Counted from the first letter of the stretch, positions 22,009-61,182 are shown. The stretch: DNA of 64,000 nt from a bacterium (GCA_030649135.1 JAUSGI010000008.1:128001-192000); one strand, 5' to 3'. A program made the numbers and translations. The notes: generated from the letters alone by a model not told the origin.

Positions 22009-22041
22009 TAGGCTATTATAACCTACCCATAGTTAATATAG

Positions 22042-22112: not shown

Positions 22113-22113
22113 A

Positions 22114-22392: not shown

Positions 22393-22465
22393 GCGCCTAT
22401 AGCTCAGCTGGTAGAGCAGATCCCTCTTAAGGATAAGGTCGCAGGTTCGATCCCTGCTGGGCGCA
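22393..22465 (+). tRNA. tRNA-Lys (anticodon CTT)
   Basis: Hand-folded. Acceptor GCGCCTA/TGGGCGC, D-arm GCTC-AGCTGGTA-GAGC, anticodon loop CTCTTAA and T-arm GCAGG-TTCGATC-CCTGC. Confidence 0.8.
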
Positions 22466-22467
22466 CT

Positions 22468-22548
22468 GGGCGGGTGGTGAAATGGTAGACACGCCAGTTT
22501 TAGGAACTGGTGCCGCAAGGCATGGAGGTTCAAGTCCTCTCCCGCCCA
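22468..22548 (+). tRNA. tRNA-Leu (anticodon TAG), long variable arm
   Basis: Hand-folded. Acceptor GGGCGGG/CCCGCCC, anticodon stem CCAGT/ACTGG, anticodon loop TTTAGGA, variable arm TGCCGCAAGGCATG and T-arm GGAGG-TTCAAGT-CCTCT. Confidence 0.85.
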
Positions 22549-22616
22549 CAACAACATCTTTCCTTTTCTTCGATTTTTTGCTAAAATCAGCGATATAGTT
22601 AATCTAACAAAATAAT

Positions 22617-23555
22617 ATGAATCACCAAAAAGGGTTTATCAATATAGTGTATACGGTAGTAGTAGTTGCTCTGCTTATTGGAGCGGGAGCATACCTTACC
22701 ATCCGACAAATCAATAAACCGTATATTTCCCCTACCGCCACCACTACTCCTCCAGGCGCCACCACTACTCCTCCTACTCCACCGCCACCACCCGCACCAG
22801 GAGTTTGTACTGCCGATGTCAAACAATGTCCTAACGGCACTTACGTAAGCCGAAGTGGTCCTAATTGCACCTTCGCCGCTTGTCCATCTTCTTTGCCACA
22901 ACCACAATTCCAGCTCATCTCTATGCGTGAAGGAGAACGGGAAAGTTCGTTCCTGCTGGAAAGAATTTATACAGACCGCGTGACTGGTCTTAATTTCGGA
23001 GAATATCCGGTAGCGATGGAACAGGGCAATCCAGTCACTTTGCGTCTCGGTGAAGTCGTAAGCAACGGTTGTACTGTCACACTCACGCTTACCAAAATTG
23101 AAGGAAATGTCGCTACGTTTAGCAAGAAAACAGATTCCAGTCAGATTTGCCCGATTTGTCTTGCTCGCAATACGTTAATCGATACTCCTTCTGGTACAAT
23201 TCCCGTACAAGATTTGGAAAAAGGCATGGCTATTTGGACTCTAAACCGATTAGGCGAGCGTATCTCCGCTATTGTCGTAGAAACTACGAGAACTCCTGTA
23301 CCCCCGACCCATCAAGTGATTCATCTTGTTCTTAATGATGGCCGAGAAGTATTCGTATCCGGAGGACACCCAGTTACCAATGGGCAAAAAGTACAAGACC
23401 TCTTGGTCGGTGAAGTTTATGACGGCTCTTATGTATCGAGTGTAGAATCTATCCCCTACCGCGAGCAGGCTACATATGATGTCTTACCATCAGGCGAGAC
23501 CGGGTTCTATTGGGCTAACGGCATCTTACTTGACAGCACACTGAATCATAAGTGA
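22617..23555 (+). CDS. membrane-anchored Thr/Pro-rich, Cys-rich protein with a C-terminal Hint (bacterial intein-like) domain
   Basis: N-terminal TM helix, a TTTPPGATTTPPTPPPPP linker and a Cys-rich module. Hint blocks are present: CLARNTLIDTPSGTIPVQDL, SGGHPVTNG and TYDVLPSGETGFYWANGILLDS. Confidence 0.7.
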   Translation: MNHQKGFINIVYTVVVVALLIGAGAYLTIRQINKPYISPTATTTPPGATTTPPTPPPPPAPGVCTADVKQCPNGTYVSRSGPNCTFAACPSSLPQPQFQLISMREGERESSFLLERIYTDRVTGLNFGEYPVAMEQGNPVTLRLGEVVSNGCTVTLTLTKIEGNVATFSKKTDSSQICPICLARNTLIDTPSGTIPVQDLEKGMAIWTLNRLGERISAIVVETTRTPVPPTHQVIHLVLNDGREVFVSGGHPVTNGQKVQDLLVGEVYDGSYVSSVESIPYREQATYDVLPSGETGFYWANGILLDSTLNHK

Positions 23556-30019: not shown

Positions 30020-30646
30020 CTAATTATAATACATATACTTGCCTTTTGTCAAACGAGTTAGGAAACTCCGACGGTGGATAACGGTTGGGCCAAACTTTCG
30101 GATCGCTTTCCGATGCTGACTGGTGCCATAGCCCTTGTGTATATGAAAATTGAATTCTGGAAATTTTTTAGAGAGTCTGACCATTCTCTTGTCTCGTATT
30201 ACTTTTGCCATGATGCTCGCAAGCGAAATAATCGGAATCTTTTCATCCCCTTTTATAACCGTCAGTTGATGTCTAAACCGGTCCGGCGCTTTTATACCTC
30301 CGTCCAAAAATACTTGAGCATCCTCCGGTACGGAAAGAGAGGCGAGGCTTCTCTTAATACCGAGTCTGATGGCGTAGGTGATGCCCTTGCGGTCAATAAT
30401 CTTTTCCGACACAAGCGAAACCGCAAAGTCGAGCACACCCTTTTTACGAGCCTCGAGAGCCAAAGCAAACCACAGTTCCCTATCACCCGCGGAGAGTTTT
30501 TTGGAATCTTTGATGCTCTTGAAAAAGTTTTTACTTGCCCTACGAAGCTTAAGCGAAGTGGGGTTGGGAATCGCCACTGCTCCTACCGCCACCGGACCGG
30601 CCAAAGGCCCTCTACCCGCTTCATCAATACCTACGACATAACTCAT
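30020..30646 (-). CDS. rnhB: ribonuclease HII
   Basis: N-terminal MSYVVGIDEAGRGPLAGPV with the DEAGRG catalytic motif. Confidence 0.9.
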   Translation of the reverse strand: MSYVVGIDEAGRGPLAGPVAVGAVAIPNPTSLKLRRASKNFFKSIKDSKKLSAGDRELWFALALEARKKGVLDFAVSLVSEKIIDRKGITYAIRLGIKRSLASLSVPEDAQVFLDGGIKAPDRFRHQLTVIKGDEKIPIISLASIMAKVIRDKRMVRLSKKFPEFNFHIHKGYGTSQHRKAIRKFGPTVIHRRSFLTRLTKGKYMYYN

Positions 30647-30682
30647 GCGTTACCGAAGATTATACCTTATAATGACCTTCTG

Positions 30683-33600
30683 ATGAATAAGTTTGTCCAC
30701 CTACATACCCATTCGCATTACTCTCTACTCGAAGCTCTGCCAAAAGTCCCGGACCTCGTCAAGAAAGCCCGTCTCTCCGGTATGAACTCGCTTGCCTTGA
30801 CGGATTCCGGCAATTTGTACGGCGCTATAGAATTTTATAAAGAATGTAAGAAACAGGACATTAAACCGATAATCGGAGTCGACTTCTACGTCGCTTTGCG
30901 CACCAGAAACGATAAAGAAGCGCGTATAGACAACGAGCATGGCCGCCTGGTACTCCTTGCCGAGAATAATCTGGGATACCGAAACCTCCTCAAACTGGTG
31001 ACCGATTCCTTCTTGGAAGGCTTCTACTACAAACCACGCATCGACAAGGAGTTGATTGAGAAATACCGCGAGGGTCTCATCGCTATTCTACCGACATCCA
31101 CTTCGGCAGATGTAGAGGAGAAAGCAAAATATTATAAAAGTATCTTCGGCCCGGACAACTTTTTTCTGGAACTTACCAGCCATCCGGAGGTGAGAGGCCA
31201 CCAAGAAAAGATGCGAGAAAGAATCGCCTTCGCCCAAAAGGCGGGGATCTCTCTGGTTGCCGCCCATGATGTCTACTACCTGGAACCGGACGATAAGTCG
31301 GCGCGAGACACCTTGCTCTCCATCCAAGGTCATCTTAATCTAAGCGGAGATAGCGGAGTCTTCGGCAAGGATGTCGAGAATCTTTCTTTCATTAGTAGCG
31401 AGGAAGCCAGAGAATACTTCAAAGAAACACCGGATGCCATAGAGAACACGCAAAAAATCGCCAGGAGATGCAATATTGAACTTGAACTCGGCAAATGGGT
31501 CTTCCCCAATTATGTGGTCGAGAGTGGCAAGTCGTATGACGAAGAGCTACATGATGTGGTTTATGCCGGATTTAAAAAGAGGAACCTGCCCCAGAATGCC
31601 GAAACATTGGAGCGAGTAGCATATGAATTAAAAATTATTTGCGGTAAGGGTTATTCTCCATACTTCCTGGTTGCCGCCGACCTGCTGCGCTATGCGCATG
31701 AGCATGGCATTTTGACCAATACCCGTGGTTCGGCCGCGGGCTCTATGGTTACCTACCTTTCGGGCATCACCACCGTTGACCCTCTCAAATATGCCCTGCC
31801 CTTTGAACGCTTCCTTAACCCGGACCGCCCCTCACCGCCGGACATTGACCTTGATATCGCGGATGACAGACGGGATGAGGTCATAGAATATGCCCGTACA
31901 AAATATGGCAAAGACCATGTAGCCCAGATCGGCACCTTCGGCACCATGATGGCCCGCGGGGCGGTACGCGACGTCACCCGAGCACTCGACTTCTCGTATA
32001 CCTTGGGCGACAAAATAGCCAAACTGATTCCGCTCGGCGCTCAAGGATTCCCCATGACCCTCAACCGAGCTATGGCGGAAAATCCGGAACTTAAAAAACT
32101 CTATGAAGAAGACGGGGAAGTAAAACGAATTATCGACATGGCTCAAAAAATAGAGGGTAATGCGCGGCATATTAGTGTTCATGCCGCCGGTGTAGTAATC
32201 TCGCCGGAACCACTCGTCGACTACACTCCCCTTCAGTACGATACCAAGGGAGAAAAGAAAATTATTACCCAGTACGACATGTACTCCATCGAGGAAACCG
32301 GGCTCTTGAAGTTTGACTTCCTGGGTATCAGAAACCTCTCCATTATTGCCGAGACTCTCGTCCGTATCGAAAAGATTGAAGGTAAATCAATAAAGATAGC
32401 GGACATACCCATAGACAATCGTAAGACATTTGAAATGCTGACTCGTGGCGAAACGGAAGGCACATTCCAACTAAACGGCGACGGTATGACGCGAGCCCTG
32501 ATGGAACTGAAACCTAACTCTATTCACGATATTAACGTTATGGTTGCCCTCTATCGTCCGGGACCGATGGACAACATCAAGGAATATATCGCAAGAAAAC
32601 ACGGACAGAAACCGACGAGCTATATCCACCCCAAAATGAAGAATTTCCTGGACACTACTTATGGGGTACTGGTTTACCAAGACGACCTCATCATGACAGC
32701 CATTGAAGTGGCCGGCTATTCCTGGGGCGAAGTCGATAAATTCCGTAAAGCGGTAGGCAAGAAAATTCCGGAAGAGATGAGAAAACAACATATTATCTTC
32801 GTCGAGGGCTGCCAAAAGAATGGCGGCATGAATAAGGAGAAGGCTGAGACGCTTTGGAAACTTTTTGAACCATTTCAGGGTTACGGCTTCAATAAAGCTC
32901 ATGCGGCCAGTTATGGTCACATCGCCTACGTCACGGCTTATTTGAAAGCAAATTTTCCCGCTATCTATATGTCCGCCGTACTTACGGCAGAATCCGGTGA
33001 TGTGGAAAAAATAGGAGTTATGATAAAAGAGTGCAAGCGCATGGGTATAGAGGTTCTGCCCCCTTCTATAAACGAGAGCTTTTCCCAATTTACTGTTGTT
33101 AAAGACAATGTTCCCCTAGGAAAGACCTCGGGGTACCCCGAGGTCTTTCCTAGGGGATACAAAATCCGTTTTGGGTTGACTACAATCAAAAATTTCGGAG
33201 AAGGCATATCCAGTTCCATTACAGCTGAAAGAAAAGTGCATGGTAAGTTCAGAGATTTAGAGGATTTCCTTGACTGCATCCGGGATAAAAATTTGAATAA
33301 AAAATCTCTTGAATCACTGATAAAATGCGGTGCTCTTGATGACATCCCCTCGACAAGCTCGGGACAAGTCGGCGAACGAGGCGTACTACTCGCCAATATG
33401 GATAACTTACTTGAATATCATCGGGAAAGAATAAATGCGCCTCAAAACCAGGACTCGCTTTTCGGTCTCATGTCCGACACATCCACTCTGCCTGGTTTAC
33501 GCCTCGCGAATGCTCCCGCCGCTACGCAAAAGGAGAAACTGCTGTGGGAAAAAGAACTGCTCGGTCTCTATATCTCCGGACATCCGCTGGAAGCATACAA

Positions 33601-33901
33601 AGATAAGCTTCTGGCTCTCCAAGTCAATATCGAGAAGCTCCCAGGCCTACACGAAGGTGATACGGCGGTCATTGCCGGACTGGTCGAGGAAATCCGCGAC
33701 GTTCTTACCAAAGGAAATGAGCGTATGGTCTTCATGCGCTTGGCAGATTTGTCCGGCATTATCGAGGTGGCTATCTTTCCGAGTATACTCAACGAATTTC
33801 GTTCTTTCATCCAGCCGGAAGCATGTATAGCTATCAAGGGCAAAGTCTCGAAACGGAAAGGTGAGACCTCATTCATTGCCGAAAAGATTAAGGCCTTGTA
33901 G
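30683..33901 (+). CDS. dnaE: DNA polymerase III alpha subunit
   Basis: PHP domain HLHTHSHYSLLEA, palm and fingers, HhH (GLTTIKNFGEG) and an OB fold. The start is set at MNKFVHL because the track ORF 5' extension is antisense to rnhB. Confidence 0.93.
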   Translation: MNKFVHLHTHSHYSLLEALPKVPDLVKKARLSGMNSLALTDSGNLYGAIEFYKECKKQDIKPIIGVDFYVALRTRNDKEARIDNEHGRLVLLAENNLGYRNLLKLVTDSFLEGFYYKPRIDKELIEKYREGLIAILPTSTSADVEEKAKYYKSIFGPDNFFLELTSHPEVRGHQEKMRERIAFAQKAGISLVAAHDVYYLEPDDKSARDTLLSIQGHLNLSGDSGVFGKDVENLSFISSEEAREYFKETPDAIENTQKIARRCNIELELGKWVFPNYVVESGKSYDEELHDVVYAGFKKRNLPQNAETLERVAYELKIICGKGYSPYFLVAADLLRYAHEHGILTNTRGSAAGSMVTYLSGITTVDPLKYALPFERFLNPDRPSPPDIDLDIADDRRDEVIEYARTKYGKDHVAQIGTFGTMMARGAVRDVTRALDFSYTLGDKIAKLIPLGAQGFPMTLNRAMAENPELKKLYEEDGEVKRIIDMAQKIEGNARHISVHAAGVVISPEPLVDYTPLQYDTKGEKKIITQYDMYSIEETGLLKFDFLGIRNLSIIAETLVRIEKIEGKSIKIADIPIDNRKTFEMLTRGETEGTFQLNGDGMTRALMELKPNSIHDINVMVALYRPGPMDNIKEYIARKHGQKPTSYIHPKMKNFLDTTYGVLVYQDDLIMTAIEVAGYSWGEVDKFRKAVGKKIPEEMRKQHIIFVEGCQKNGGMNKEKAETLWKLFEPFQGYGFNKAHAASYGHIAYVTAYLKANFPAIYMSAVLTAESGDVEKIGVMIKECKRMGIEVLPPSINESFSQFTVVKDNVPLGKTSGYPEVFPRGYKIRFGLTTIKNFGEGISSSITAERKVHGKFRDLEDFLDCIRDKNLNKKSLESLIKCGALDDIPSTSSGQVGERGVLLANMDNLLEYHRERINAPQNQDSLFGLMSDTSTLPGLRLANAPAATQKEKLLWEKELLGLYISGHPLEAYKDKLLALQVNIEKLPGLHEGDTAVIAGLVEEIRDVLTKGNERMVFMRLADLSGIIEVAIFPSILNEFRSFIQPEACIAIKGKVSKRKGETSFIAEKIKAL
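33113..33156. repeat. 44 bp perfect palindrome inside the dnaE coding sequence
   Basis: CCCCTAGGAAAGACCTCGGGGT|ACCCCGAGGTCTTTCCTAGGGG, where the right arm is the exact reverse complement of the left. It encodes PLGKTSGYPEVFPRG. Confidence 0.9.
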
Positions 33902-46873: not shown

Positions 46874-48004
46874 ATGACAAATGTGTACGTGGCACTCGGT
46901 TTCCTCGTTCTATGGACAATCATCTTCGCCTACGCCTCAATTGTCTTGGTGAAGACCGGGTCGATTGCGGTCGTGTTTCGATTCAGGGCGTTCAAACGCG
47001 TCCTTGAACCCAGGACATTCCCCCACTTCATCATCCCAATCATTGACACCATCGAGAGGTATTCGACCCAGACTCATCAGGAGGAACTCCCGGCCGAAGC
47101 TGACAATATCGATCGGGTAAACGACATCCCCAGTCCCGGGAAAAAACTCCCTTTCCGTGTCCTCATGAAAGGAAAGGGGGAAGCCATCTTCTACGTGAAG
47201 AAGGCCGAGAGCGACGCTACCATCATCCGTACCGACCCACTCACAGCATGGAATCAGGTCCATTTCCAAGACCTTAATGAGCCAAGAAGAAAAGCTCTGG
47301 AGGAGGACTCGCTTCACGCCCCACTCACAGGAGAGATCGCGGTGGTCGTCGAGTGGTATTTGAAGGGCGACGACGAATATTCCATCAAAGACTTCGTCCA
47401 GAACGTCATCCCAGAGGGTGGGCGTAATCGAGAAGAAGAGATCAGGAAGCGTATCGAGGACATGGCATCCAGGACGCTTCAGGAACTCCTTGGACCCGTT
47501 ACTCTCGGTCATGCCCAAGAGATGATGTCTCTCTTCAGCCTACTCATAAAGGAAAGGACAGAGATTCTGGTCGGGGAAAAGGGTGAAGGGAGCAGACCCT
47601 GGGGCATCCACATTCGTGATGCCTACATCAAGAGCATCCACCCGGGCCGGAGAGTGAACGAGGCCAGAGCGGATGCCGCAGCCGCAGTCAGCCAGAAGCA
47701 AGGAACAATCCGTATTGCCGAAGGTGTGGCAGTGGCAACCGAGCTGCAGGCCGAGGCTGACAAGACGAGGGAGATCAAGAAGGGCGAAGGAGAAGCCGCC
47801 CGGATCAACGCGATGGCTGCTGCGATGAAAGATCCTGACGCGCGCTTCATCGCCCAGCTCGACGTGCTGGAAACGGCCCTGCCGGCTGCCAACACCGTGT
47901 ACGTGGTGCCAAGTGACGGAGGACTCTTCGGCAACCTGCTCGCTCTCGGCAAAGAGGTCGTGAAAAATACGAAAAAGGAGGACAAACCAGAAGACAAGAA
48001 ATAG
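46874..48004 (+). CDS. SPFH/Band-7 domain membrane protein (stomatin/HflK-like)
   Basis: N-terminal TM helix, then SIAVVFRFRAF... in a band-7 fold, then an Ala/Glu-rich coiled-coil. RBS AGGAGAAG upstream. Confidence 0.75.
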   Translation: MTNVYVALGFLVLWTIIFAYASIVLVKTGSIAVVFRFRAFKRVLEPRTFPHFIIPIIDTIERYSTQTHQEELPAEADNIDRVNDIPSPGKKLPFRVLMKGKGEAIFYVKKAESDATIIRTDPLTAWNQVHFQDLNEPRRKALEEDSLHAPLTGEIAVVVEWYLKGDDEYSIKDFVQNVIPEGGRNREEEIRKRIEDMASRTLQELLGPVTLGHAQEMMSLFSLLIKERTEILVGEKGEGSRPWGIHIRDAYIKSIHPGRRVNEARADAAAAVSQKQGTIRIAEGVAVATELQAEADKTREIKKGEGEAARINAMAAAMKDPDARFIAQLDVLETALPAANTVYVVPSDGGLFGNLLALGKEVVKNTKKEDKPEDKK

Positions 48005-48152
48005 ACAGGAAGTGTTCGTGTGCCGTCGCCAGCTTTCAGCTGGCGGCGGCACTTTTATTTATAAAATTCTATCACATCTATTGACATAATTGAATCAAAG
48101 GTGTATAATTCTAGTAGATGCTCTCCACAAACTAACAGAAAGGACAGGCGAA

Positions 48153-48662
48153 ATGACGCTACTGGTAATTATCGCCATCGGAATTTTAGGGACGATACTG
48201 GCTGGCTACACAGCATACCGCCTTCGCGACACGTCGGTCAGGCGCCAGCGGCAGACCAGACGACGTGTACGAACAGAAGATACTGCTGTAGCGGCTCCGC
48301 AACCGACACCGACACCACGTCGTCGCTCCTCACCAGGAGGAAACGGATGTCTGGTGTGGCTAGTCTTAATCGTCGTGATTGTCTTAGGAATCAGTGCCTA
48401 CTCGTACTGGTCTTCCAAGGCAACAACGCCGGCGGTGCCTATCGCATCAGACGAGATAACCACCGTGGTGGCCCGGCCGGGACAACCGGCCGAGGTTGTC
48501 GTCCGAAGAGGGTGGCAACTCCAGGTTTGGGATAGGGACCACTCCAAGTTCTCTAGCCGTATGATACGGCGGGGGGAAGACCGGGTGTGGGTCTTCATCA
48601 CCAAGAAGGGAGTGGAGTCCGCGGAAATCAAAGTCCGCGTGTACTATGCCCCGCGGAGGTAG
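48153..48662 (+). CDS. hypothetical membrane protein, possibly an NfeD-like partner of the SPFH protein
   Basis: Two TM helices and a C-terminal beta-rich segment. The track ORF is 48090..48662 and the internal start at MTLLV is preferred. The NfeD assignment is speculative. Confidence 0.4.
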   Translation: MTLLVIIAIGILGTILAGYTAYRLRDTSVRRQRQTRRRVRTEDTAVAAPQPTPTPRRRSSPGGNGCLVWLVLIVVIVLGISAYSYWSSKATTPAVPIASDEITTVVARPGQPAEVVVRRGWQLQVWDRDHSKFSSRMIRRGEDRVWVFITKKGVESAEIKVRVYYAPRR

Positions 48663-48689
48663 GGGGGGGAGAACAGCGCAATACCAAAG

Positions 48690-48726
48690 GCGCCACGACC
48701 TCGGAGGTCGTGGCGCTCTTTTCTTT
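48690..48726 (+). terminator. rho-independent terminator
   Basis: GCGCCACGACCT-cgg-AGGTCGTGGCGC followed by TCTTTTCTTT. Confidence 0.8.
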
Positions 48727-48753: not shown

Positions 48754-49017
48754 TCAGTTAACCGGATAACGGGCAGGAATACCAAACGTACCAAGAATTA
48801 AGTGGATCAAACCATAAGCAGAAATCATAATGAACATCCCAAAAAGCCCCCAGAAGATTTTCCTCTTCCCCTCGTCACGATTAGTATCGGTAGTCTGGGA
48901 TGCAATGAATTGAAAGACACCCCAAAAGAACACCAGAAAAGCGATAGCAAACGCCAAGAGAATCAGAGGGTTCAGTATGAACTGATTAATCTTACCGAGA
49001 AAAACAGAAATATCCAT
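48754..49017 (-). CDS. small two-helix membrane protein, paralog A of a pilin-like (VirB2/TrbC-like architecture) family
   Basis: FLVFFWGVFQFIASQTTD...EGKRKIFWGLFGMFIMISAYG shares its hairpin motif with the five upstream paralogs. Confidence 0.55.
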   Translation of the reverse strand: MDISVFLGKINQFILNPLILLAFAIAFLVFFWGVFQFIASQTTDTNRDEGKRKIFWGLFGMFIMISAYGLIHLILGTFGIPARYPVN

Positions 49018-49024
49018 CCACTAA

Positions 49025-49369
49025 CTATAGGCCAATAATCCCCGGAGGTTGGATGTTTGAATTATCAGTAATACCCAAGTTAGTACCGATGAACCTGACA
49101 AGACCCCAGACGGAAACCATGACGAATAGGGCAATGAGGCCCCAGAGCATAATTTTCTTGGCTTCCGTCTTGGACGCCTCATCTCCTTGAGCAAAGATGA
49201 ATTTGACCAAACCCCAGAAAAATGCCAGAAGGGCAAGACCCACGACAATTGGCAACGCGAGAGCTACCAAACCTTTAATACTATTAAAGAGTATCGTTAT
49301 GTTGCCAAGCGTCTGGGCGAAGGCAAATGCCGGAACAAGCGCCAGAGTCACAAGAATGACTTTTTTCAT
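49025..49369 (-). CDS. pilin-like paralog B (Sec signal peptide plus two-helix hairpin)
   Basis: MKKVILVTLALVPAFAFAQ signal, then LLAFFWGLVKFIFAQGDEASKTEAKKIMLWGLIALFVMVSVWG. Confidence 0.6.
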   Translation of the reverse strand: MKKVILVTLALVPAFAFAQTLGNITILFNSIKGLVALALPIVVGLALLAFFWGLVKFIFAQGDEASKTEAKKIMLWGLIALFVMVSVWGLVRFIGTNLGITDNSNIQPPGIIGL

Positions 49370-49465
49370 TTATTTAACTATCTAATATTACTTTTAATAT
49401 ACCTAAACGGTATGCCTATATGGTACAACAAGGCGCATAAAAGGCAATATGGTTATCCCCCGCAC

Positions 49466-49816
49466 CTATATCACAACAGGCGGGGGTGGAGGAGTTGTAC
49501 TTTTAATCTCTAGCTGCACCTGCATGAATTTGATTATCCCCCAGACAGAGACCATGACAAAAAGGGCAATAAGACCCCATTTCATAATCCTCTTGCCCTC
49601 TTCTATTGCTTTCTCGTCTCCACTTACATGGAAGATAAACTTTACCAGACCCCAAAAGAATACCAAGAGGGATAGCCCGGCTAATACTATAATTGATGTC
49701 TTCGTGAGAGCCCCGATTGCTTCTATGAGAGCCTTGAGACCAGTAAGAGGCGCGGCAAACACAAAACCCGGCAAGAGGAGGGCTACAAGCGCGAATATAT
49801 TTGAATATTTTTTCAT
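49466..49816 (-). CDS. pilin-like paralog C (signal peptide plus hairpin, poly-Pro C-terminus)
   Basis: LLVFFWGLVKFIFHVSGDEKAIEEGKRIMKWGLIALFVMVSVWG. Confidence 0.6.
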   Translation of the reverse strand: MKKYSNIFALVALLLPGFVFAAPLTGLKALIEAIGALTKTSIIVLAGLSLLVFFWGLVKFIFHVSGDEKAIEEGKRIMKWGLIALFVMVSVWGIIKFMQVQLEIKSTTPPPPPVVI

Positions 49817-49829
49817 CTTAAATTAATAA

Positions 49830-50123
49830 CTACTTATACGGTGGTAAAAGTGGTAAACCGAACGGTCGACTGAAGCCTATGTCTCTATATGCGAAGGCGA
49901 GAATCGCCATAAGAGATGATAGCACAAAAAGCGCTATTAGTCCCCACTTCATTAAATTCTTGCCTTCCTCAACAGCCTTCTCGTCCCCGCCGACACGGAA
50001 GATAAACTTGACCAGGCCCCAGAGGAACACCAATAAAGCAAGACTCGCGATTACAGGCAAGGCCGTGCGTATCAAGTCGATAAAGATATCCACCAGACCC
50101 TTGAAATCGCTTGGAGGGTTCAT
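49830..50123 (-). CDS. pilin-like paralog D
   Basis: LLVFLWGLVKFIFRVGGDEKAVEEGKNLMKWGLIALFVLSSL. Confidence 0.6.
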   Translation of the reverse strand: MNPPSDFKGLVDIFIDLIRTALPVIASLALLVFLWGLVKFIFRVGGDEKAVEEGKNLMKWGLIALFVLSSLMAILAFAYRDIGFSRPFGLPLLPPYK

Positions 50124-50473
50124 CTTAGTTTATTAATAGTAGTCTCAATCACTTGCGCAAGCACCCAAGAACCGAGTAAGACCGCAGTACCCACAGACGT
50201 GTAGAGTAACGCCTTGTGGGCGGTCTTAAGATTCGTCTCATTGCCTTGTGCTGTGACATAAAGAAAGCCGGAATAGATGAAAGAGAGTACCGCAAGTACC
50301 CCGCCGATGGGTAGAATAATCTTGTCGATAATTATCCTAAGGAGGGTAAAGAGCGTGCAGTCCGAGCCACAGTTAATCGGGTTCTTTAGGGTTAAACCAT
50401 AAACCGAGACCGTGCCTAGGACAAAAAATATGGAGAATGATATTAGGGCGACGGATAATTTTTTCATGCTCAT
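50120..50473 (-). CDS. pilin-like paralog E (divergent)
   Basis: Signal or TM segment, then FIYSGFLYVTAQGNETNLKTAHKALLYTSVGTAVLLG. Confidence 0.5.
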   Translation of the reverse strand: MSMKKLSVALISFSIFFVLGTVSVYGLTLKNPINCGSDCTLFTLLRIIIDKIILPIGGVLAVLSFIYSGFLYVTAQGNETNLKTAHKALLYTSVGTAVLLGSWVLAQVIETTINKLR

Positions 50474-50476
50474 GAT

Positions 50477-50785
50477 TTAAGGCGCACCCAAGAGAGAGTA
50501 GCCAGTATTAAGCAAGACACTCGTTATAGTATAAATCAGAAGCCAAGCTCCGAGTATCCACAGGTAGCCGACAAGTACTTTCCGGAAAATCTCTTTTGCC
50601 TTCGTCTTGGCCGACTCGTTACCGCCCGATGTCAGTAGGATAAAGCCAGCGTAGGCAAAAGCGGCGGTAGCAAGAAAAGTGGAGATGACTATCAGATTAT
50701 TTATAAGGTTTTGAGCAAGCAAAATCAGACTGGAGAAGGTACATAGTTTTTCCACACCATCACAGACTATAAGTGTCTTCCACAT
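50477..50785 (-). CDS. pilin-like paralog F (divergent)
   Basis: AFAYAGFILLTSGGNESAKTKAKEIFRKVLVGYLWILGAWLL. Confidence 0.5.
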   Translation of the reverse strand: MWKTLIVCDGVEKLCTFSSLILLAQNLINNLIVISTFLATAAFAYAGFILLTSGGNESAKTKAKEIFRKVLVGYLWILGAWLLIYTITSVLLNTGYSLLGAP

Positions 50786-50787
50786 AA

Positions 50788-52071
50788 TTATGGTTTTATT
50801 AGCGCTTCAATCTCATTATGGGCATGGTAGACTGCCTCGAGAGTGCGGGCACGGCCACTGGTTACGGATTCTATTGCGTTATGAAAGATTGTTTTGGTCA
50901 TCACGGTATCAGGGTCCAGCCAGCCCTTAGACTGAAGCGCCGCATCGTAAAAGACAGACAATGCCGTGTCAGCCGGTCTTACAGATAGGAGGTCGCGCCG
51001 TGCCGGTGGTAGAGAAAGAATCTCGGATAAAGCCCGCGCCACATCTTTTGACACCAATTTGGTGGCGAGGGCAAGTGCGGCGCCGGGATTTAGAGAACCG
51101 CGGGATATGGCCACCCCTCGCAGTCGCCCGAAGGTAACAGTCTTACCGGTGACTCTCGACTGGGGTACGGATGAGACGGCAAAGTTGAGAATGGGGTTTT
51201 TGTTCCTAAGCACGCGAAGTTCTGATGCAAAGCCCAGATAATAAGCGGAATCGCCACTTGTGAAGTGGGTCTGGGCATCAATGAGCGAACGATTCCAACT
51301 ATAGTAGACCCTCGTCGGGTTTGAGAATTGGGTGTAAAAACTTAGGGCCGCCTCACCCGGCGAAATTGTCAAACCAAAAGTTTCGGCGATTTGTGAGCGC
51401 AATTCTATTCCGGCCAAACTGGTAATAGGCGTGCCGGCCTGAAGTAGCAGTAGAGCGAGAATGTCTTTGGCATGAGGAATATTTCGCGCCTCCCCCAGAG
51501 CCATGACCGAAGAAATGAGATTACCCGCGGCATCCTTTTTAGATAGATTGGTAGCGGCCGGATATATTTCATCCCAATACACAATAGGTCTGGCTTGCCC
51601 CGCTGCCGTAAGCAAATCTCTATTATAGTAAAGCACCAAGGGGTCTAGAGAGAGAGGAAGAGCGTAGATACCACCCGGGTCAAGGAAGAGTTCCCCTTCT
51701 TCAATGAATACGCTCTTGAAATCTCGCTCATTCACATTGCTGTAAGAAATGAGCGCGAGCTTGGGCTTATTTTTCCAAAGTTTGTCTTGAGTGAGAATAA
51801 TCAGGTCAGGGCCAGTTCCCCGCGCCAACGCTTCGGTAAATTCCGCCTCTATTGTGTCAGCTGACTTTTCTTCATAACTTACGGAGAATGCCCGGTCTTC
51901 ACCAAGAAGGGATGGGGTAAGTAAAAGATTAAAGTCCTGTGAGGTAATATCTCCCCAGACGGTTAAGGCAACATTCTGGCCACCAGAACCGCGATACAAA
52001 GAGAAGGCCGCCACGCCGGCGACAATAGCAACCGCGAAAATCGCTAAGAGAATAATCTGAAACTTTGACAT
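50788..52071 (-). CDS. membrane-anchored extracellular solute-binding-protein-like protein (orphan)
   Basis: N-terminal TM anchor followed by a periplasmic-binding-protein-like fold. No permease or ATPase gene is adjacent. Confidence 0.5.
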   Translation of the reverse strand: MSKFQIILLAIFAVAIVAGVAAFSLYRGSGGQNVALTVWGDITSQDFNLLLTPSLLGEDRAFSVSYEEKSADTIEAEFTEALARGTGPDLIILTQDKLWKNKPKLALISYSNVNERDFKSVFIEEGELFLDPGGIYALPLSLDPLVLYYNRDLLTAAGQARPIVYWDEIYPAATNLSKKDAAGNLISSVMALGEARNIPHAKDILALLLLQAGTPITSLAGIELRSQIAETFGLTISPGEAALSFYTQFSNPTRVYYSWNRSLIDAQTHFTSGDSAYYLGFASELRVLRNKNPILNFAVSSVPQSRVTGKTVTFGRLRGVAISRGSLNPGAALALATKLVSKDVARALSEILSLPPARRDLLSVRPADTALSVFYDAALQSKGWLDPDTVMTKTIFHNAIESVTSGRARTLEAVYHAHNEIEALIKP

Positions 52072-52114: not shown

Positions 52115-52135
52115 TGTCAAAGACCGTCTTTGACA
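52115..52135 (+). repeat. REP-A copy 1 (TGTCAAAGACCGTCTTTGACA)
   Basis: Exact palindrome located 10 nt upstream of the RAYT start. Confidence 0.85.
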
Positions 52136-52145
52136 TAATAGGTTC

Positions 52146-52793
52146 ATGGGTAATAGAGACTATAAAAAATTTGCCACTGGAACTATCTTTCATATATACA
52201 ATAGAGGCAATAACCGAGAAAAAATTTTCCATGATGAGCAGGACTATAAAGCGCTAATATTTAGAATTGGTCTGGCACTAGGATTCGAAGAAAAAGAACT
52301 GTCACATCAATTATGTCACCAACCATATTCAAGAATCAGGATTACAGGCACACATAAAGGAAAATTCAAGCTACACGCTTTTTGTCTTATGCCAAATCAT
52401 TTTCACTTACTTATCGAACAGTGTGAAGATGTGCCTATATCGAAAATTATCTCGAAAATATGTGCAAGTTATGCTAAATATGTAAATAAAAAATACAAAA
52501 GAGTCGGGCATGTATTTCAGGATAAATTTAAAGCAGTACTTATGGAATCAAATGAACAACTTATGTGGATTTGCACATATATACACATGAATGCAGTGAA
52601 GGACAGTATGGTCAAACATCCAGATGAATATGTATGGAGTAGCTACAATGACTATACAACTGACAGAAATCTGCCAATCATAAATACTGACTTTTTGATC
52701 TCACTATTTGGTGATAAAAATAGTTTCAAAAAAGAGACCCTCCGCCCTTACTCAGATAGCCTGTCAAAGACCGTCTTTGACATTAAGAGTTGA
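52146..52793 (+). CDS. REP-associated tyrosine transposase (RAYT; IS200/IS605 Y1 HUH family)
   Basis: HUH motif MPNHFHLLIE and catalytic Tyr region YVWSSY. The last 10 codons are encoded by REP-A copy 2. Confidence 0.85.
   Translation: MGNRDYKKFATGTIFHIYNRGNNREKIFHDEQDYKALIFRIGLALGFEEKELSHQLCHQPYSRIRITGTHKGKFKLHAFCLMPNHFHLLIEQCEDVPISKIISKICASYAKYVNKKYKRVGHVFQDKFKAVLMESNEQLMWICTYIHMNAVKDSMVKHPDEYVWSSYNDYTTDRNLPIINTDFLISLFGDKNSFKKETLRPYSDSLSKTVFDIKS
52762..52782 (+). repeat. REP-A copy 2
   Basis: Identical 21-mer, overlapping the RAYT 3' end. Confidence 0.85.
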
Positions 52794-52813
52794 AACATAT
52801 CGGTCTGGATTAT

Positions 52814-53590
52814 TTATTTCAAAACCACCATCAGGTGATCTGAGAAATCGATATAGCCACCCTTTTGATATTCTTTGATTTTCTTAAGGAACTCTTCAGC
52901 CTCTGTATCATTCGGAAAAGAATCAGTATTATGAATAAATCTATAGAAAATCTTGAGGTCAAAACGGCTATTAGTCGTAAGGATATCTCCAACAAACATT
53001 CTCATCCTTAATCTCTTAACCTCGACCTTAAACCCGAGTTTCTTATAGAAATCAGCGATGTATTCTGCATAATTAAATTCTGGGTAAACCTGTTGCAACA
53101 TTATCTTATAGTGATCGCTATCTTCAGGAAGAGTGAGAATAAGCAATTTGCCATCATTATTTAATAAGTCAGGAAGTTTAGAGAGTTGTGCATTATAATC
53201 TTTTTCATTGAGACCCCAGTAATAGTTTGTGTGGGATGTAAAGACAATATCGTATTTTTTATCAGTTTTAAAAGTAGCAAGACTCCCTGGAAAACATTCC
53301 CCAATGTTATTTTCCAGAGTTAAAAATGCTTTGGCTGATGATAAGGCATTTTGATTAGGTTCAAGTAAGTCACAAATGTAGTCTCCTTCAACACGGTCAA
53401 GAATCTGCTTTGTAGTGTGGCCTTCGCCGCAACCAATATCAAGAACGAGTTTATTGGGGGAATTTTGAGTATTTATCTCTTTTACAATTTCAGCTACAAT
53501 CCCAAACCAATCCTCAGCAAAACTACGAATGTAGATATTTTCGTATACATCTGAAAATTCTTTTTCTCCCCAGAAATGCCACTTTGCCAT
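52814..53590 (-). CDS. class I SAM-dependent methyltransferase
   Basis: Motif I VLDIGCGEGHTT. Lies between REP-A copies 2 and 3. Confidence 0.8.
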   Translation of the reverse strand: MAKWHFWGEKEFSDVYENIYIRSFAEDWFGIVAEIVKEINTQNSPNKLVLDIGCGEGHTTKQILDRVEGDYICDLLEPNQNALSSAKAFLTLENNIGECFPGSLATFKTDKKYDIVFTSHTNYYWGLNEKDYNAQLSKLPDLLNNDGKLLILTLPEDSDHYKIMLQQVYPEFNYAEYIADFYKKLGFKVEVKRLRMRMFVGDILTTNSRFDLKIFYRFIHNTDSFPNDTEAEEFLKKIKEYQKGGYIDFSDHLMVVLK

Positions 53591-53611
53591 AATATTTTTT
53601 ATTTCAGGATA

Positions 53612-53632
53612 ATGTCAAAGACGGTCTTTGAC
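53612..53632 (-). repeat. REP-A copy 3 (inverted orientation, TGTCAAAGACGGTCTTTGACA)
   Basis: Reverse complement of copies 1 and 2. Confidence 0.85.
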
Positions 53633-53678
53633 ATACACATACATTTGAGAATGGAGATTTTTTCACAAGCATAAATAA

Positions 53679-57147: not shown

Positions 57148-57322
57148 TGCTCCATTTTAGCATAAAACAGTGCTATTTGCCAGCGTTTTCCGCCTTGAAT
57201 TCCCTTCCCTTTCTTCTTGACAAAGAGTGTTATATATGATAGGATTCTAGAGGACCTTGGGAGCACCTGCCATACCGGCATGGTGCGCTCGTTAACCCAG
57301 TTCATTCACAAGGAGACAAGAG

Positions 57323-58459
57323 ATGACACGACGCATTGCTTTGTTCACGCTGGTCGCAATCCTCTGGATTGCTCAGACCAGCCTCGCGCAGGCACCCTAT
57401 CAGGTGAAGGAGGGAGACACCCTCTACGCCCTGAAGGGGATCTACTCGGCTAACCAACCCGAGTGGAAAGCGCTCACGATCGTGAACCCGCAGCTCGCGG
57501 AACCCGGCCGAGCCTTCACCGATACGCAGAAACGATTTATCGTCATCCTGCGCCTGGGTGAACGGCTCAAGGGCCTCGAAATGCTCGGCATAACCGCCCA
57601 GCCGATACTCGTTACCGGGTTCGTAGCGCCAGCGCCGACCACGAAAAACGTCGTCACAGACATCACTGCCAGTGCCGATAGCCACAACAGGTGGCTCATC
57701 GCGCTCATGGCAACAGTGTTGGCGCTCATCATTCCCTACCTGATCTTCCGGTATCTGCCGGAATCGCGTAGGCCGAACCTTCCGTTCCTCGGGAGGTATA
57801 ACCCGGCACTCACCACGAACCCTGTCACGGCGGCTCCCCCGATGGTCGCCGGAGGCATCGCCTCTGACAATCATGACGCTATCAGGCGCCAGTTCCGGGA
57901 ACAGGCGGCGCGGACGTACGCGTCGACGCACGGCGGTGTTATACCCCAGATGAGTGACATCCGCATCGTCGGCAACATCATCCATGGTACGCTACACGAC
58001 GTCTGGGAAACCTCAGACGCCAATGGCCGCTGGATTCCCCGCCGCTACAACGGCGAGCCAGGGTTCCAGGCGATGGTCTCGGTCAACAACGCCGAACCAG
58101 CGCTCCAGACATGGTCACAACCATGTGGCAACGATCTGCGTATCGGGCGACGCTACCGTGGCGGGCGCTTCATATCCCGCCCTGCGGCCGGGACGATTCC
58201 GGCTCAGGCTCCAGCCACTCCAGTGGCTCCGCTTCGTCCGCACATCGCGGTGGCGCAGGAGCCGGACGGGCAGGTGGTCACCATCACGGTCGGCGGTATG
58301 CGTTACACCACTCATGGCAATGACATCCACGTCAACGTGGATCAGGGGGGCGCTGTGACGGATGTCACAGCGAACGGCCAGATCCGCGTGGCGAAGGTGC
58401 CGAAGCGGACGAAACCACGTGTGGTACGACCGGCGGCGACAGGTACACGCGACAAGTAG
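57323..58459 (+). CDS. secreted and membrane-anchored LysM-domain protein (about 62 % GC)
   Basis: Signal peptide, LysM motif (YQVKEGDTLYALKGIY), one TM helix and a Pro/Ala-rich region. RBS AAGGAGA upstream. Confidence 0.6.
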   Translation: MTRRIALFTLVAILWIAQTSLAQAPYQVKEGDTLYALKGIYSANQPEWKALTIVNPQLAEPGRAFTDTQKRFIVILRLGERLKGLEMLGITAQPILVTGFVAPAPTTKNVVTDITASADSHNRWLIALMATVLALIIPYLIFRYLPESRRPNLPFLGRYNPALTTNPVTAAPPMVAGGIASDNHDAIRRQFREQAARTYASTHGGVIPQMSDIRIVGNIIHGTLHDVWETSDANGRWIPRRYNGEPGFQAMVSVNNAEPALQTWSQPCGNDLRIGRRYRGGRFISRPAAGTIPAQAPATPVAPLRPHIAVAQEPDGQVVTITVGGMRYTTHGNDIHVNVDQGGAVTDVTANGQIRVAKVPKRTKPRVVRPAATGTRDK

Positions 58460-58514
58460 TACAAACGCGGCCAGACGTTAATCTGGCAAAGTCCGGGGAG
58501 ACTTAACTCCCCAC

Positions 58515-58542
58515 GGGCAGGTCATCGTGACCTGCCCTTTTT
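58515..58542 (+). terminator. rho-independent terminator, preceded by a second hairpin GGGGAG-actta-ACTCCCC
   Basis: GGGCAGGTCA-tcg-TGACCTGCCC followed by TTTTT. Confidence 0.75.
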
Positions 58543-58552
58543 CGTTACAAGT

Positions 58553-58870
58553 TTATACGCGAGGGCGGGCTAAAAAGGCGAACCACATGAAATAGCGTTC
58601 AACATCCGGCAGGAAGCTGTGATATTCCTTTCCCCCCAGAACCGCATCGGCGAAGACTTCTCTCGCTCGGTCAATTTCTGACCTGCGTTTTTTCCACCTC
58701 TTGTCCATTTGCGTCAGCTCGAAAAGTTCCATGGCTCGTCCCACCGCTCCCCAGAAAGATTTCTCGTCTTTACCTTGCCACTTGGCGGCACGTCCGACTT
58801 CACTACCAATATTACCGAGTTGTTCGGCCAGAGTCAGAGTAAACCACCTTTCTTTCGAGACCGTTGCCAT
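58553..58870 (-). CDS. hypothetical protein
   Basis: Track ORF with a helical prediction. A four-helix-bundle (23S rRNA IVS protein) resemblance was considered and is too weak to call. Confidence 0.3.
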   Translation of the reverse strand: MATVSKERWFTLTLAEQLGNIGSEVGRAAKWQGKDEKSFWGAVGRAMELFELTQMDKRWKKRRSEIDRAREVFADAVLGGKEYHSFLPDVERYFMWFAFLARPRV

Positions 58871-58871
58871 G

Positions 58872-59222
58872 TTACTTAACTATCTTAGTTACGATTTCTA
58901 CAATTTTATTTTGGATTCCAATATCCCCAACACCTCGAGTCTTATTGCCAAGGACTGGCTTAAGATTAATCATTGAATCGAATTCAATAAAATCTTCCCC
59001 AGATTTTTCTAGATATAAGTTGATGCCCCAAGTATCCTCCCCGCGCGAATTTTCTTTTTCAATAAGTTGCGACTGTATATCGACATGGAGTTCCCCACCA
59101 ACTCCCAAGATACCTTGCCCGACATCTACTACCGCCTTTATGATATCGCCATAAAGTTCGCGAGCGAGTTCCCTTAGCTCTTCTCTGGAAATTGAATCCT
59201 TGACTATTCTTGTTTCAACCAT
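58872..59222 (-). CDS. hypothetical protein
   Basis: Track ORF, stop-start adjacent to the previous hypothetical. Confidence 0.35.
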   Translation of the reverse strand: MVETRIVKDSISREELRELARELYGDIIKAVVDVGQGILGVGGELHVDIQSQLIEKENSRGEDTWGINLYLEKSGEDFIEFDSMINLKPVLGNKTRGVGDIGIQNKIVEIVTKIVK

Positions 59223-59257
59223 GGGGATATAATAGCATCAACTTTTGACCTTTTTGT

Positions 59258-60436: not shown

Positions 60437-60446
60437 TCCATCCCTT

Positions 60447-61163
60447 TGTCAAACACTGGGTGTTAGACAACTATAGGATCTTCAAATAATCTAGCTCTTC
60501 TTCTAGAAGTTTTGCTGGACTTGTCCTAGTAAACTCTTGGTATTTGTCTGGGCCTTTGAATTGACCTAGAACGATTTCTGATAAAAGCAGACTTCCCCAT
60601 CGATTTTCTTTTATAAAATCTTGATAGCTTGACCAAGGATATTGGTCTTCTTTCTTAAACCACTTCCCAATCTCTCTCGGGTTTCTATGAATATAGCTAG
60701 ACAGATATAAAAGCTGATGATCACCTTCTATATGAACCGCACGATAAGGCCCTTGAAAAACATGTCCAGATTTATCATATCTGGTATTGTAATATTTGGC
60801 ATAAGCATTAAGCACTCTCTGCATATAAGCTGCTATGCCTTCTTCTTCAACTTCTTTGACCAATAAGTGGAAATGGTTTGGCATGATACGGAAAGAAACA
60901 AGCTCAACTGTACGCTTTTTAACAATCTCCTCTGTATTATCTAACACCCGGTGTTTGACGAAATCCTTTACTGACCTACCAACCTGTGGAAAAGTTACTT
61001 CTGATTGGAAGTAAAGAATGAGGAAAAGAAATCTGTTGTAGTCTCCTGTATCATGAAAAATAACTTGTTTGTGTACACCCCTATTACACAAATGATAATA
61101 CTCGTTTGGAGACAACCGTGTTCTTCTCATATATTCATTATGTCAAATACCCGGTGTTTGACA
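60447..61163. mobile_element. second REP–RAYT module (REP-B, RAYT, REP-B)
   Basis: Imperfect palindromes TGTCAAACACTGGGTGTTAGACA (60447-60469) and TGTCAAATACCCGGTGTTTGACA (61141-61163) abut the stop and start of the transposase gene. Confidence 0.7.
60471..61130 (-). CDS. REP-associated tyrosine transposase (RAYT; IS200/IS605 Y1 HUH family), second copy
   Basis: HUH motif MPNHFHLLVKE and YPWSSY. A partial REP-B (AACACCCGGTGTTTGAC) lies inside the gene at about 60943-60959. Confidence 0.85.
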   Translation of the reverse strand: MRRTRLSPNEYYHLCNRGVHKQVIFHDTGDYNRFLFLILYFQSEVTFPQVGRSVKDFVKHRVLDNTEEIVKKRTVELVSFRIMPNHFHLLVKEVEEEGIAAYMQRVLNAYAKYYNTRYDKSGHVFQGPYRAVHIEGDHQLLYLSSYIHRNPREIGKWFKKEDQYPWSSYQDFIKENRWGSLLLSEIVLGQFKGPDKYQEFTRTSPAKLLEEELDYLKIL

Positions 61164-61182
61164 AACTTATATATCCTTAATA

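Follow-up and report, generated by a model that had tools for sequence, protein, structure and literature searches.

Why would a member of the Patescibacteria encode six small, pilin-like membrane proteins in tandem directly behind a solute-binding protein (SBP), with no type IV secretion system (T4SS) ATPase nearby? The question is raised by a 64-kb stretch of DNA (GCA_030649135.1, JAUSGI010000008.1:128001–192000), here called the window, in which these genes occupy positions 48,754–52,071 of the minus strand, counted from the first letter of the stretch. The answer we favor is that the six proteins are Sec-inserted hairpin pilins, that a monoderm-type T4SS encoded at a distance would assemble them into a structure for contact with a host cell, and that the SBP would serve as a ligand-binding accessory. 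We assign a probability of about 0.6 to this reading as a whole, which includes the proposal that a Zambryskibacteria-type Patescibacterium carries the locus as a core operon inherited vertically. An origin in the Patescibacteria, assumed in a first-pass annotation made from the sequence alone, agrees with the SBP: it is 68–81% identical to its best 120 database relatives, several of which are named as proteins of Candidatus Zambryskibacteria (Paceibacteria) metagenome-assembled genomes (MAGs).

The first-pass annotation had described six consecutive minus-strand open reading frames (ORFs) of 87–117 amino acids, and all six are present in the ORF list of the window. We numbered the proteins p1–p6 by coordinate, so that the order of transcription is reversed and position 1 of the array corresponds to p6 and position 6 to p1. 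The components of the locus are as follows.

48689–48717, both strands: bidirectional intrinsic terminator in which a 13-bp stem (9 G-C pairs) closes a loop of 3 nt, with a T-rich tail on each strand
48754–49017, minus strand: p1, pilin position 6 and the last gene, 87 amino acids
49025–49369, minus strand: p2, pilin position 5, 114 amino acids
49370–49465, minus strand: conserved spacer ahead of the fifth pilin gene, with promoter-like hexamers
49466–49816, minus strand: p3, pilin position 4, 116 amino acids
49830–50123, minus strand: p4, pilin position 3, 97 amino acids
50120–50473, minus strand: p5, pilin position 2, 117 amino acids
50477–50785, minus strand: p6, pilin position 1, 102 amino acids
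50788–52071, minus strand: SBP, the first gene of the operon, 427 amino acids with an N-terminal transmembrane (TM) helix

In transcription order, 2 nt separate the SBP gene from p6, and the gaps that follow measure 3, −4, 13, 96, and 7 nt. Given this tight spacing, we consider SBP, p6, p5, p4, p3, p2, and p1 to form a single compact operon. The strong terminator reported beside the array on first pass was found at 48689–48717 and is common to the pilin operon and a convergent gene (48090–48662). The window proteins are deposited as MDO8590304.1–MDO8590309.1, on a contig of 216,895 bp, and the two pilins looked up carry the annotation “hypothetical protein”.

What kind of proteins are these? 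All six find their best Pfam match in PF18895 (T4SS_pilin). Four exceed the gathering cut-off of 26.6 bits (p2, 41.0 bits, E 2e-10; p3, 35.1; p4, 29.6; p5, 28.2) and two fall slightly below it (p1, 25.3 bits, E 1.7e-5; p6, 23.7 bits, E 5.2e-5). Among positional relatives in 24 other genomes, a set that takes in the counterparts of p1 and p6, 144 of 144 match PF18895 at E<0.01. Judged by these profile matches, membership in PF18895 is solid, and the earlier claim that the six are paralogs sharing one architecture holds. The family itself is very large; a search of 1.84 billion proteins with its profile recovers 50,312 cluster representatives at E≤1e-3, of which 8,043 remain at E≤1e-10. The related profile PF04956 (TrbC/VirB2) is also matched by 29 of the 144 positional relatives at the same threshold (best E 1.6e-7) and, within the window, by p5 alone at a sub-threshold E of 0.11; the first pilin of one related locus (L085) reaches 24.1 bits against the PF04956 cut-off of 27.9. 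When the family profile was compared with all sequences in the PDB, the pilus subunit TraM of pKM101 (8cw4) ranked first, with an E of 0.31 that is not significant. The NCBIfam model NF045849 (Mbov_0395 pilin-like) yields near-full-length matches to p1–p5 (E 5.8e-6 to 0.024) that remain sub-threshold, with scores of 14–26 bits against a cut-off of 40; the best is p1 (25.9 bits, E 5.8e-6). Homology of the six proteins to classical VirB2 through intermediate sequences is plausible.

Proteins that are small, span the membrane twice, and are encoded in tandem might be holins, bacteriocin-immunity proteins, or pilins of the Flp/Tad or type IV classes, with no relation to T4SS. Fold searches with a hairpin model do not separate these possibilities, as they returned generic helical hairpins only and gave no discrimination between hairpin families. 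None of the six proteins has a PHROG match at E≤0.01, and the Flp, N-methyl prepilin, and immunity families are absent from the Pfam and NCBIfam matches even at E≤1, so that of the families proposed for checking on first pass it is a T4SS pilin family that was matched, and nothing pointed to an unrelated family such as holins or immunity proteins. The prepilin-peptidase motif (G↓FTLIE) is absent from all six N termini, and the operon lies in a syntenic housekeeping region rather than in a prophage or bacteriocin cluster. The chance that the proteins are unrelated to T4SS pilins is next to negligible.

In all six proteins, hydropathy analysis places two hydrophobic helices on either side of a short charged loop. 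For p2, AlphaFold2 modeling from 55 relatives predicts a helical hairpin (residues 21–59 and 64–97) with predicted local distance difference test (pLDDT) scores of ~87–93 within the hairpin and a mean of 75 overall. The first-pass annotation had gone further and described four near-identical cores. This description fits p2, p3, and p4, which are 46–57% identical to each other (p4 is 57% identical to p3 and 49% to p2), but p1 is a looser fourth member, with 31–41% identity to these three. Identities of p5 and p6 to the other proteins range from 20 to 31%.

Is the array a set of interchangeable copies or a set of distinct subunits? A scan of GTDB, with one genome per species and an alignment of the SBP, yielded 80 loci in which the SBP is 37–79% identical to that of the window. 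Their labels include Zambryskibacteria, Parcubacteria, Paceibacterota, Campbellbacteria, and Taylorbacteria as well as many generically labelled MAGs. Identity of the SBP to that of the window splits the loci into two deep clades, one with values of at least 52% (the window's clade, clade A) and one with values of at most 45% (the deeper clade, clade B); the nearest relatives are 20–40% divergent at the protein level, and saturation of synonymous sites is likely. Pilin genes were located by ORF calling combined with a family hidden Markov model (HMM). Six pilin ORFs are present in 55 of the 80 loci, five in 8, seven in 5, and four in 6, and several of the short arrays sit at truncated contigs. 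For positions 1, 2, 5, and 6, the best match in any other genome is the pilin at the same position in 55 of 55 cases; the corresponding figures are 52/55 for position 3 and 50/55 for position 4. Between clades, matching remains strict for positions 1, 2, and 6 (54–55/55; 54/55 for position 1 and 55/55 for position 6), and positions 3–5, which form the FFWGLVKFIF subgroup, cross-match one another. These comparisons indicate that the subunits, four to six in number, are not interchangeable and form a stable set of ancient origin.

Two observations on labelling emerged from the same scan. A contig binned as “Nitrospira sp.” (L071, JBEBJM010000007.1) carries a Zambryskibacteria-type SBP-pilin operon, as do many third-party-annotation MAGs titled “uncultured Candidatus Saccharibacteria”; SBP identity in these records reaches 79%. 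Both mismatches point to mis-binning or generic mislabelling.

The first-pass annotation had offered a different view of the array, as a diversifying pilin reservoir. Its copies would be recent duplicate cassettes that supply filament or antigenic variation, as proposed for the VirB2 paralogs of Bartonella and Anaplasma, and the idea has also been raised in a published discussion of Patescibacteria arrays (PMC12102498). The divergence of the paralogs (20–57% identity) would suit such a role, as would the few loci with five or seven copies; the blurring of positions 3–5 across clades leaves room for gene conversion or later duplication. Fixed order and position-by-position orthology argue against it. 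Same-position best matches account for 50–55 of 55 cases, and positions 1, 2, and 6 are strictly orthologous between clades whose SBPs are only ~40% identical. Gene order, spacing, and the internal spacer are all conserved. The loop is as conserved as the helices, with scores of 0.48–0.62 for the loop and 0.52–0.72 for the TM helices. No flanking repeats or recombination sites accompany the genes, the only repeats being the coding homology itself. With position-specific orthologs in the same order in 55 species-level genomes, the reservoir proposal is largely refuted, and we regard it as highly improbable.

The individual subunits differ in features that are retained at their positions. The p6 protein carries a conserved Cys8/Cys15 pair, matches the family HMM with an E of 4.5e-37, and has no signal peptide in the window's clade; in p5, a signal peptide is present and the hairpin is preceded by a conserved N-P-x-N-C-x3-C motif. 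A signal peptide is likewise missing in the window's clade from p4, which belongs to the FFWGLVKFIF subgroup. A Sec-type signal peptide (MKK...VFA↓A) precedes the hairpin of p3, which ends in a proline-rich tail, and a canonical one (MKK...AFAFA↓Q) is found in p2, which has the best family score in every locus (family HMM E 2e-51). Finally, p1 has no signal peptide in any of the seven genomes compared for this gene. Canonical Sec signal peptides are found in the deeper clade at positions 1–5 and never at position 6, and those of positions 1 and 3 (p6 and p4) have been lost in the window's clade. In most positions the N-terminal segment and C-terminal tail are the least conserved parts of the protein (0.30–0.51 at positions 1–4); the N-terminal segment scores higher at positions 5 and 6 (0.56 and 0.64). 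We count the weak conservation of the termini in favor of their exposure at the surface.

The fifth pilin gene, p2, is also set apart by the spacer that precedes it. The median length of this spacer in 55 genomes is 99 nt, compared with medians of 2–13 nt for the other four gaps. On the minus strand of the window, it contains promoter-like hexamers, a −35 element TTGCCT at 49447–49442 and a −10 element TACCAT at 49425–49420. Upstream of the hexamers lies the box GGGGATAAC (GTTATCCCC on the plus strand, 49452–49460), and downstream lies an ATACC-N5-GGTAT inverted repeat. Alignment of the spacers revealed a conserved TTG-N(~16–17)-TATAAT or GTATCAT arrangement. The box conforms to TTATCC[AC]C, which occurs in the forward direction in 25 of 33 clade B spacers and in reverse, as GGGGATAAC, in 17 of 22 clade A spacers, against a background of one per 4–5 kb; no copy lies ahead of the SBP gene. 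We take TTATCCACA to be the DnaA-box consensus, and the box might place the expression of the pilins under DnaA or some other regulator. In view of its best family score per locus, its invariant MKK...AFAQ signal peptide, and its own promoter-like spacer, p2 is likely the major subunit.

What is the SBP doing at the head of this operon? It passes the Pfam cut-offs for SBP_bac_8 (54.1 bits, cut-off 27) and SBP_bac_1 (37.7 bits, cut-off 26), and its closest solved relatives are sugar-binding SBPs of the MalE and trehalose/maltose type (E 1e-6 to 1e-4). The protein begins with a TM helix at its N terminus and is without a lipobox cysteine. In a comparison of 79 species, 53 residues are at least 95% conserved, many of them aromatic or polar and including F4, F12, and F23 within the TM anchor. 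Conservation averages 0.51 over the protein and rises to 0.65 in its first ten residues. An AlphaFold2 model, built from a 43-sequence alignment with a mean column identity of 79%, had a mean pLDDT of 44 and was unusable. No permease or ATPase gene stands beside the SBP gene in the window or in the relatives whose neighboring genes were examined, and Pfam scans covering 46 of the larger ORFs in the window revealed no ABC_tran or permease-domain ORF. In these loci the SBP gene is flanked downstream by the pilins and upstream by gyrA, a PaaX_M gene, a methyltransferase, or a REP-associated tyrosine transposase (RAYT; REP, repetitive extragenic palindrome). On first pass the SBP had been described as an orphan, a label that does not survive the comparison: a pilin gene lies directly 3' of the SBP gene in 76 of the 77 loci with enough sequence, its start within 200 nt of the SBP stop codon and at a median gap of 2 nt. 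Given this linkage, the SBP appears to be, in effect, a dedicated component of the pilin operon.

Two further ideas about the SBP region were considered and set aside. A programmed translational fusion between the SBP and the first pilin would explain why p6 is without a signal peptide, but the two genes do not stand in the same frame relation in the window as in a related locus (L002). The PaaX_M gene was examined as a regulator of the operon; it stands directly upstream of the SBP gene only in the lineages of two related loci (L002 and L006), with homologs elsewhere in three other loci.

How might the pilins be linked to a T4SS? In a survey of Patescibacteria, 3,035 genomes were searched with PF18895 and PF04956 (Quinonero-Coronel et al. 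2025, PMC12102498). VirB2-like pilins were reported in 1,948 VirB4-positive assemblies and were close to virB4 in only 1,135 of them; 441 arrays of 2–11 pilin genes were described, with a mean identity of 25% and a maximum of 54% (PMC12102498). In Southlakia epibionticum ML1, a series of pilin genes within a T4SS cluster is essential by transposon sequencing (Wang et al. 2023, PMC10633639). That series, SEML1_0014–0019, consists of six PF18895 genes, all essential, which adjoin the VirB4 gene SEML1_0008 (PMC10633639; PMC12857230). Among the rows of Table S1 of the survey that were covered, 22 of 25 Zambryskibacteria are VirB4-positive, and genomes that carry the SBP-pilin module and are VirB4-positive include L015, L025, L030, L032, L056, L060, and the complete Campbellbacteria genome L074 (PMC12102498).

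A distant relative of the window locus (L076) provides an indication of how the pilins may be displayed. Its first pilin after the SBP (L076:11252–13873) is an 873-amino acid protein with a pilin domain at residues 51–116 and, C-terminal to it, He_PIG, Big_9, fn3, and cadherin-like Ig domains. This architecture implies that the C terminus of the pilin is extracellular and able to display adhesin modules. In the same locus, a VirD4/TrwB-type coupling protein is encoded 540 bp past the last pilin (L076:18128–19786), which is the sole exception to the pattern that T4SS genes are not neighbors of the module. Other relatives of the family have joined pilin domains to each other: single polypeptides with 2–8 tandem PF18895 domains and one N-terminal signal peptide were found (P0366, P0373, P0379, P0371, and P0372), among them a 552-amino acid protein with 6 domains and an 820-amino acid protein with 8. 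The 552-amino acid protein (P0366, L088:1777–3435) is a genuine ORF within an array that holds four more single-domain pilin genes, giving 10 domains in total, and is mostly an internal repeat expansion rather than a fusion of six ancient types. The idea that six is a structural constant, which the six-domain proteins had suggested, was weakened by this analysis of P0366 and by the range of 2–8 domains in such proteins.

Several points weigh against assembly by a T4SS. The link to such a system is drawn from family annotation and the literature, not from local gene context. In agreement with the first-pass observation that no T4SS ATPase or VirB6 lies nearby, Pfam scans covering 46 of the larger ORFs in the window revealed no VirB4, VirD4, VirB6, or PrgI. 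The 80 related loci (1.4 Mb), searched to ±10 kb of the module, likewise yielded no VirB4-like ORF. Two module-carrying MAGs, L021 and L080, are VirB4-negative in the part of the survey's Table S1 that was covered, both of them scaffold-level assemblies and neither closed (PMC12102498). The VirB2/TrbC layout proposed on first pass stands as far as assignment to the T4SS_pilin family PF18895 is concerned, but direct similarity to VirB2/TrbC is weak: besides the E of 0.11 for p5 against PF04956, an hhalign comparison of the pilin profile with 26 VirB2 sequences of the Agrobacterium type returned a probability of 0.2%, which is a weak negative given the narrow alignment used (mean column identity 66%). 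According to the available literature, a PF18895 pilus has never been visualized. We know of no role for an SBP in any T4SS. Finally, the single-chain pilins with 2–8 domains are no less compatible with a fixed membrane bundle than with a homopolymeric filament.

These points invite an alternative that dispenses with the T4SS, in which six two-TM proteins (12 helices) and a tethered SBP form a membrane complex acting, for example, as an SBP-dependent uptake channel or a ligand sensor, and the word pilin describes ancestry or fold only. The invariant adjacency of the SBP and pilin genes (76/77) at a near-zero gap would suit such a complex, as would the conservation of the phenylalanines of the SBP anchor at 95% or more over 79 species, the fixed number and order of four ancient subunit types, and the consistent remoteness of the module from VirB4. 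SBPs are the hallmark of importers (ATP-binding cassette (ABC), tripartite ATP-independent periplasmic (TRAP), and tripartite tricarboxylate transporter (TTT) systems) and their presence is typical of such machines, yet the operon encodes no energizing component, whether an ATPase or an ion-coupled permease. Single-chain proteins with 2–8 tandem domains also speak for a complex, although P0366, being mostly a repeat expansion within a larger array, does not fuse six ancient types. The separate promoter-like element of the fifth gene suggests unequal stoichiometry, and the pilin-adhesin fusions in relatives point to surface display. Moreover, the same family occurs inside the T4SS clusters of more than 1,000 other Patescibacteria and next to VirB4 in S. 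epibionticum. On balance, we consider a T4SS-independent membrane complex unlikely.

It is tempting to speculate that the SBP and the six PF18895 proteins constitute one machine in which the binding protein feeds or gates a VirB2-like assembly. This could take the form of a pilus or conduit tipped or primed by the SBP, through which a T4SS takes up host-derived molecules, or of a T4SS-independent, 12-helix hetero-oligomeric channel served by the tethered SBP. We view such a joint machine as decidedly unlikely. If it exists, it would represent a new class of SBP-dependent system and provide a first mechanistic handle on the essentiality of T4SS pilins in epibionts.

Returning to assembly by a distantly encoded T4SS, the reading that we prefer, we propose the following model. 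The pilins would enter the cytoplasmic membrane as two-helix hairpins, through Sec if a signal peptide is present and probably through YidC for the others, with both termini outside and the conserved G-[DN]-E...K loop inside; this step is suggested by the sequences together with the AlphaFold2 model. Subunits pooled in the membrane would then be extracted and assembled by a chromosomal, monoderm-type T4SS (VirB4, PrgI/VirB3, VirB6-like) encoded elsewhere, yielding a surface structure, perhaps a short pilus or conduit, for contact or exchange with a host cell. Family membership, the genetics of ML1, and the presence of VirB4 in related genomes lead us to infer this step. From the orthology of the subunits, the promoter-like spacer, and the adhesin fusion, p2 would be the bulk subunit and the other five would be fixed, non-interchangeable minor or specialized subunits. 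The SBP, translationally coupled to the array, may act as an accessory that binds a conserved ligand, probably a glycan, and could work as an adhesin or sensor, or else as a receptor for substrates; its linkage to the pilins and its conservation are the grounds for this assignment.

Which of the neighboring genes belong to this system? Upstream of the SBP gene, the window contains one further element.

52115–53634, no strand assigned: REP-RAYT-REP-methyltransferase-REP block, an insertion between gyrA and the operon that is not part of the system

The REP/RAYT element that had been noted beside the array is thus present, with a RAYT gene (52146–52793) between flanking REP palindromes. The RAYT protein matches Y1_Tnp with 46.1 bits (cut-off 23; E 6e-12) and the NCBIfam model REP_Tyr_transpos with 61 bits, below the cut-off of 80. 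A perfect 21-nt palindrome, TGTCAAAGAC-C-GTCTTTGACA, is found at 52115–52135, immediately before the RAYT gene, and at 52762–52782, at its 3' end; a third copy lies 850 nt away at 53612–53634. TTGACA is present on either strand of the palindrome, 45 nt ahead of the start codon of the SBP gene. The block has a GC content of 36.8%, compared with ~47% elsewhere, and includes a methyltransferase gene (52814–53590) that was found in 0 of 82 other loci. In relatives the same slot is occupied by a PaaX_M/Cas2-like gene or by nothing. A second RAYT gene (60471–61130, minus strand), the product of which is 30% identical to the first, is accompanied by its own palindrome, TGTCAAAYACYSGGTGTTWGACA, at 60447–60469, 60940–60962, and 61143–61165. 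This genome therefore harbors two RAYT/REP families within 9 kb (second block, 60445–61165).

On the other side of the operon, and convergent with it, lie an SPFH/Band_7 gene (46874–48004) and a gene for a two-TM protein with a β-rich C terminus (48090–48662; probable start M22). A perfect 12/12 match to the σ70 consensus, TTGACA-17-TATAAT, is located at 48081–48109 ahead of the latter. The two genes are syntenic in 34 and 32 related loci, respectively, and lie inside the pilin array in two of them (L076 and L080). They might correspond to an SPFH-NfeD-like partnership. As parts of the pilin system they were rejected, as they are convergent and each has its own terminator or promoter in the window; we retain them as conserved neighbors of uncertain relevance.

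The remainder of the window is housekeeping in character and includes topA, relA/spoT, a P-type ATPase gene, clpB, infB, the RNase R gene, smc, and dnaE, together with genes for aminoacyl-tRNA synthetases and PBP2, greA, mreBC, rseP, frr, gyrA, parB, and dprA. Cumulative GC skew is monotonic over the whole window. A LAGLIDADG_3-domain ORF overlaps or abuts the tRNA-Leu gene at 7904–7987 (region 7859–8566), and a Hint_2-domain ORF (22617–23555) adjoins a cluster of five tRNA genes (22041–22549); both ORFs may be selfish elements. The DnaE ORF (30074–33901) encodes 1,275 amino acids, and its PHP domain begins only at residue 209; either the protein is extended at its N terminus or the ORF was called too long, from a GTG start. 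A region of ~2 kb at 57302–59250, with a GC content of ~51%, encodes a secreted, TM-anchored protein of 378 amino acids with a LysM-like N terminus (57323–58459), which has no Pfam match and is apparently absent from the syntenic interval of L002 and L006.

The significance of the locus lies in what it may reveal about T4SS in the Patescibacteria. The role of these systems and of their pilin arrays was described as “completely unknown” in a 2024 perspective, in which it was noted that pilin and T4SS genes are essential for epibiotic growth in the sole species tested and that one proposal is the import of host material (PMC11665869). In a large clade of the Paceibacteria, the pilin set is a fixed six-member complement that stands apart from the ATPase machinery and is always co-transcribed with a highly conserved, importer-type binding protein. 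The comparative dataset of ~80 species bears on what the T4SS of Patescibacteria does, and the locus yields testable hypotheses regarding the ligand of the SBP, the stoichiometry of the subunits, and the distinction between major and minor subunits.

How, then, does the operon compare with known systems? Its closest counterpart by family and gene number is the array of S. epibionticum, which likewise consists of six tandem, divergent PF18895 genes encoding proteins of ~100–185 amino acids, several with signal peptides, in a monoderm Patescibacterium. The ML1 array lies within a T4SS cluster (VirB4, PrgI, VirB6-like) and has no SBP, whereas the array in the window is led by an SBP and no T4SS gene was found in the 64 kb. 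The surveyed arrays of Patescibacteria (PMC12102498) were identified with the same Pfam model and are often far from virB4; their identities (mean ~25%, maximum 54%) resemble those in the window (20–57%). That study, which favors a role in host range or variation, contains no mention of an SBP, Band_7, or a fixed gene order, whereas in the Paceibacteria clade of the window six genes keep a fixed order and an SBP is obligatory.

Like the window proteins, classical VirB2/TrbC pilins (Agrobacterium VirB2, pKM101 TraM, RP4 TrbC) are small, carry a signal peptide, and have a short polar loop between two hydrophobic helices. Those systems employ one major pilin rather than six paralogs, and the monoderm host of the window is without VirB5, VirB7, VirB9, and VirB10. 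The Mbov_0395 pilin-like protein (NF045849) of a Mycoplasma integrative and conjugative element is similar in its near-full-model, sub-threshold matches to p1–p5 and in its monoderm, MPF-FATA-type context, a class related to the VirB4 of Patescibacteria; it differs in that it is a single gene in a mobile element rather than a chromosomal six-gene operon, and the scores lie below the cut-off of 40. Carbohydrate-binding SBPs of ABC importers (MalE and trehalose/maltose-binding proteins) resemble the window SBP in their above-threshold Pfam scores, remote similarity, and many invariant aromatic and polar residues, but the window SBP is coupled to pilin genes and no adjacent permease or ATPase was found. 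The link between an SBP and pilins is unmentioned in the literature within reach of our search. Tandem PF18895 arrays have already been published, and the array in the window is a further example of them; what appear to be new relative to the searchable literature are its linkage to an SBP, its fixed gene order, and its remoteness from VirB4.

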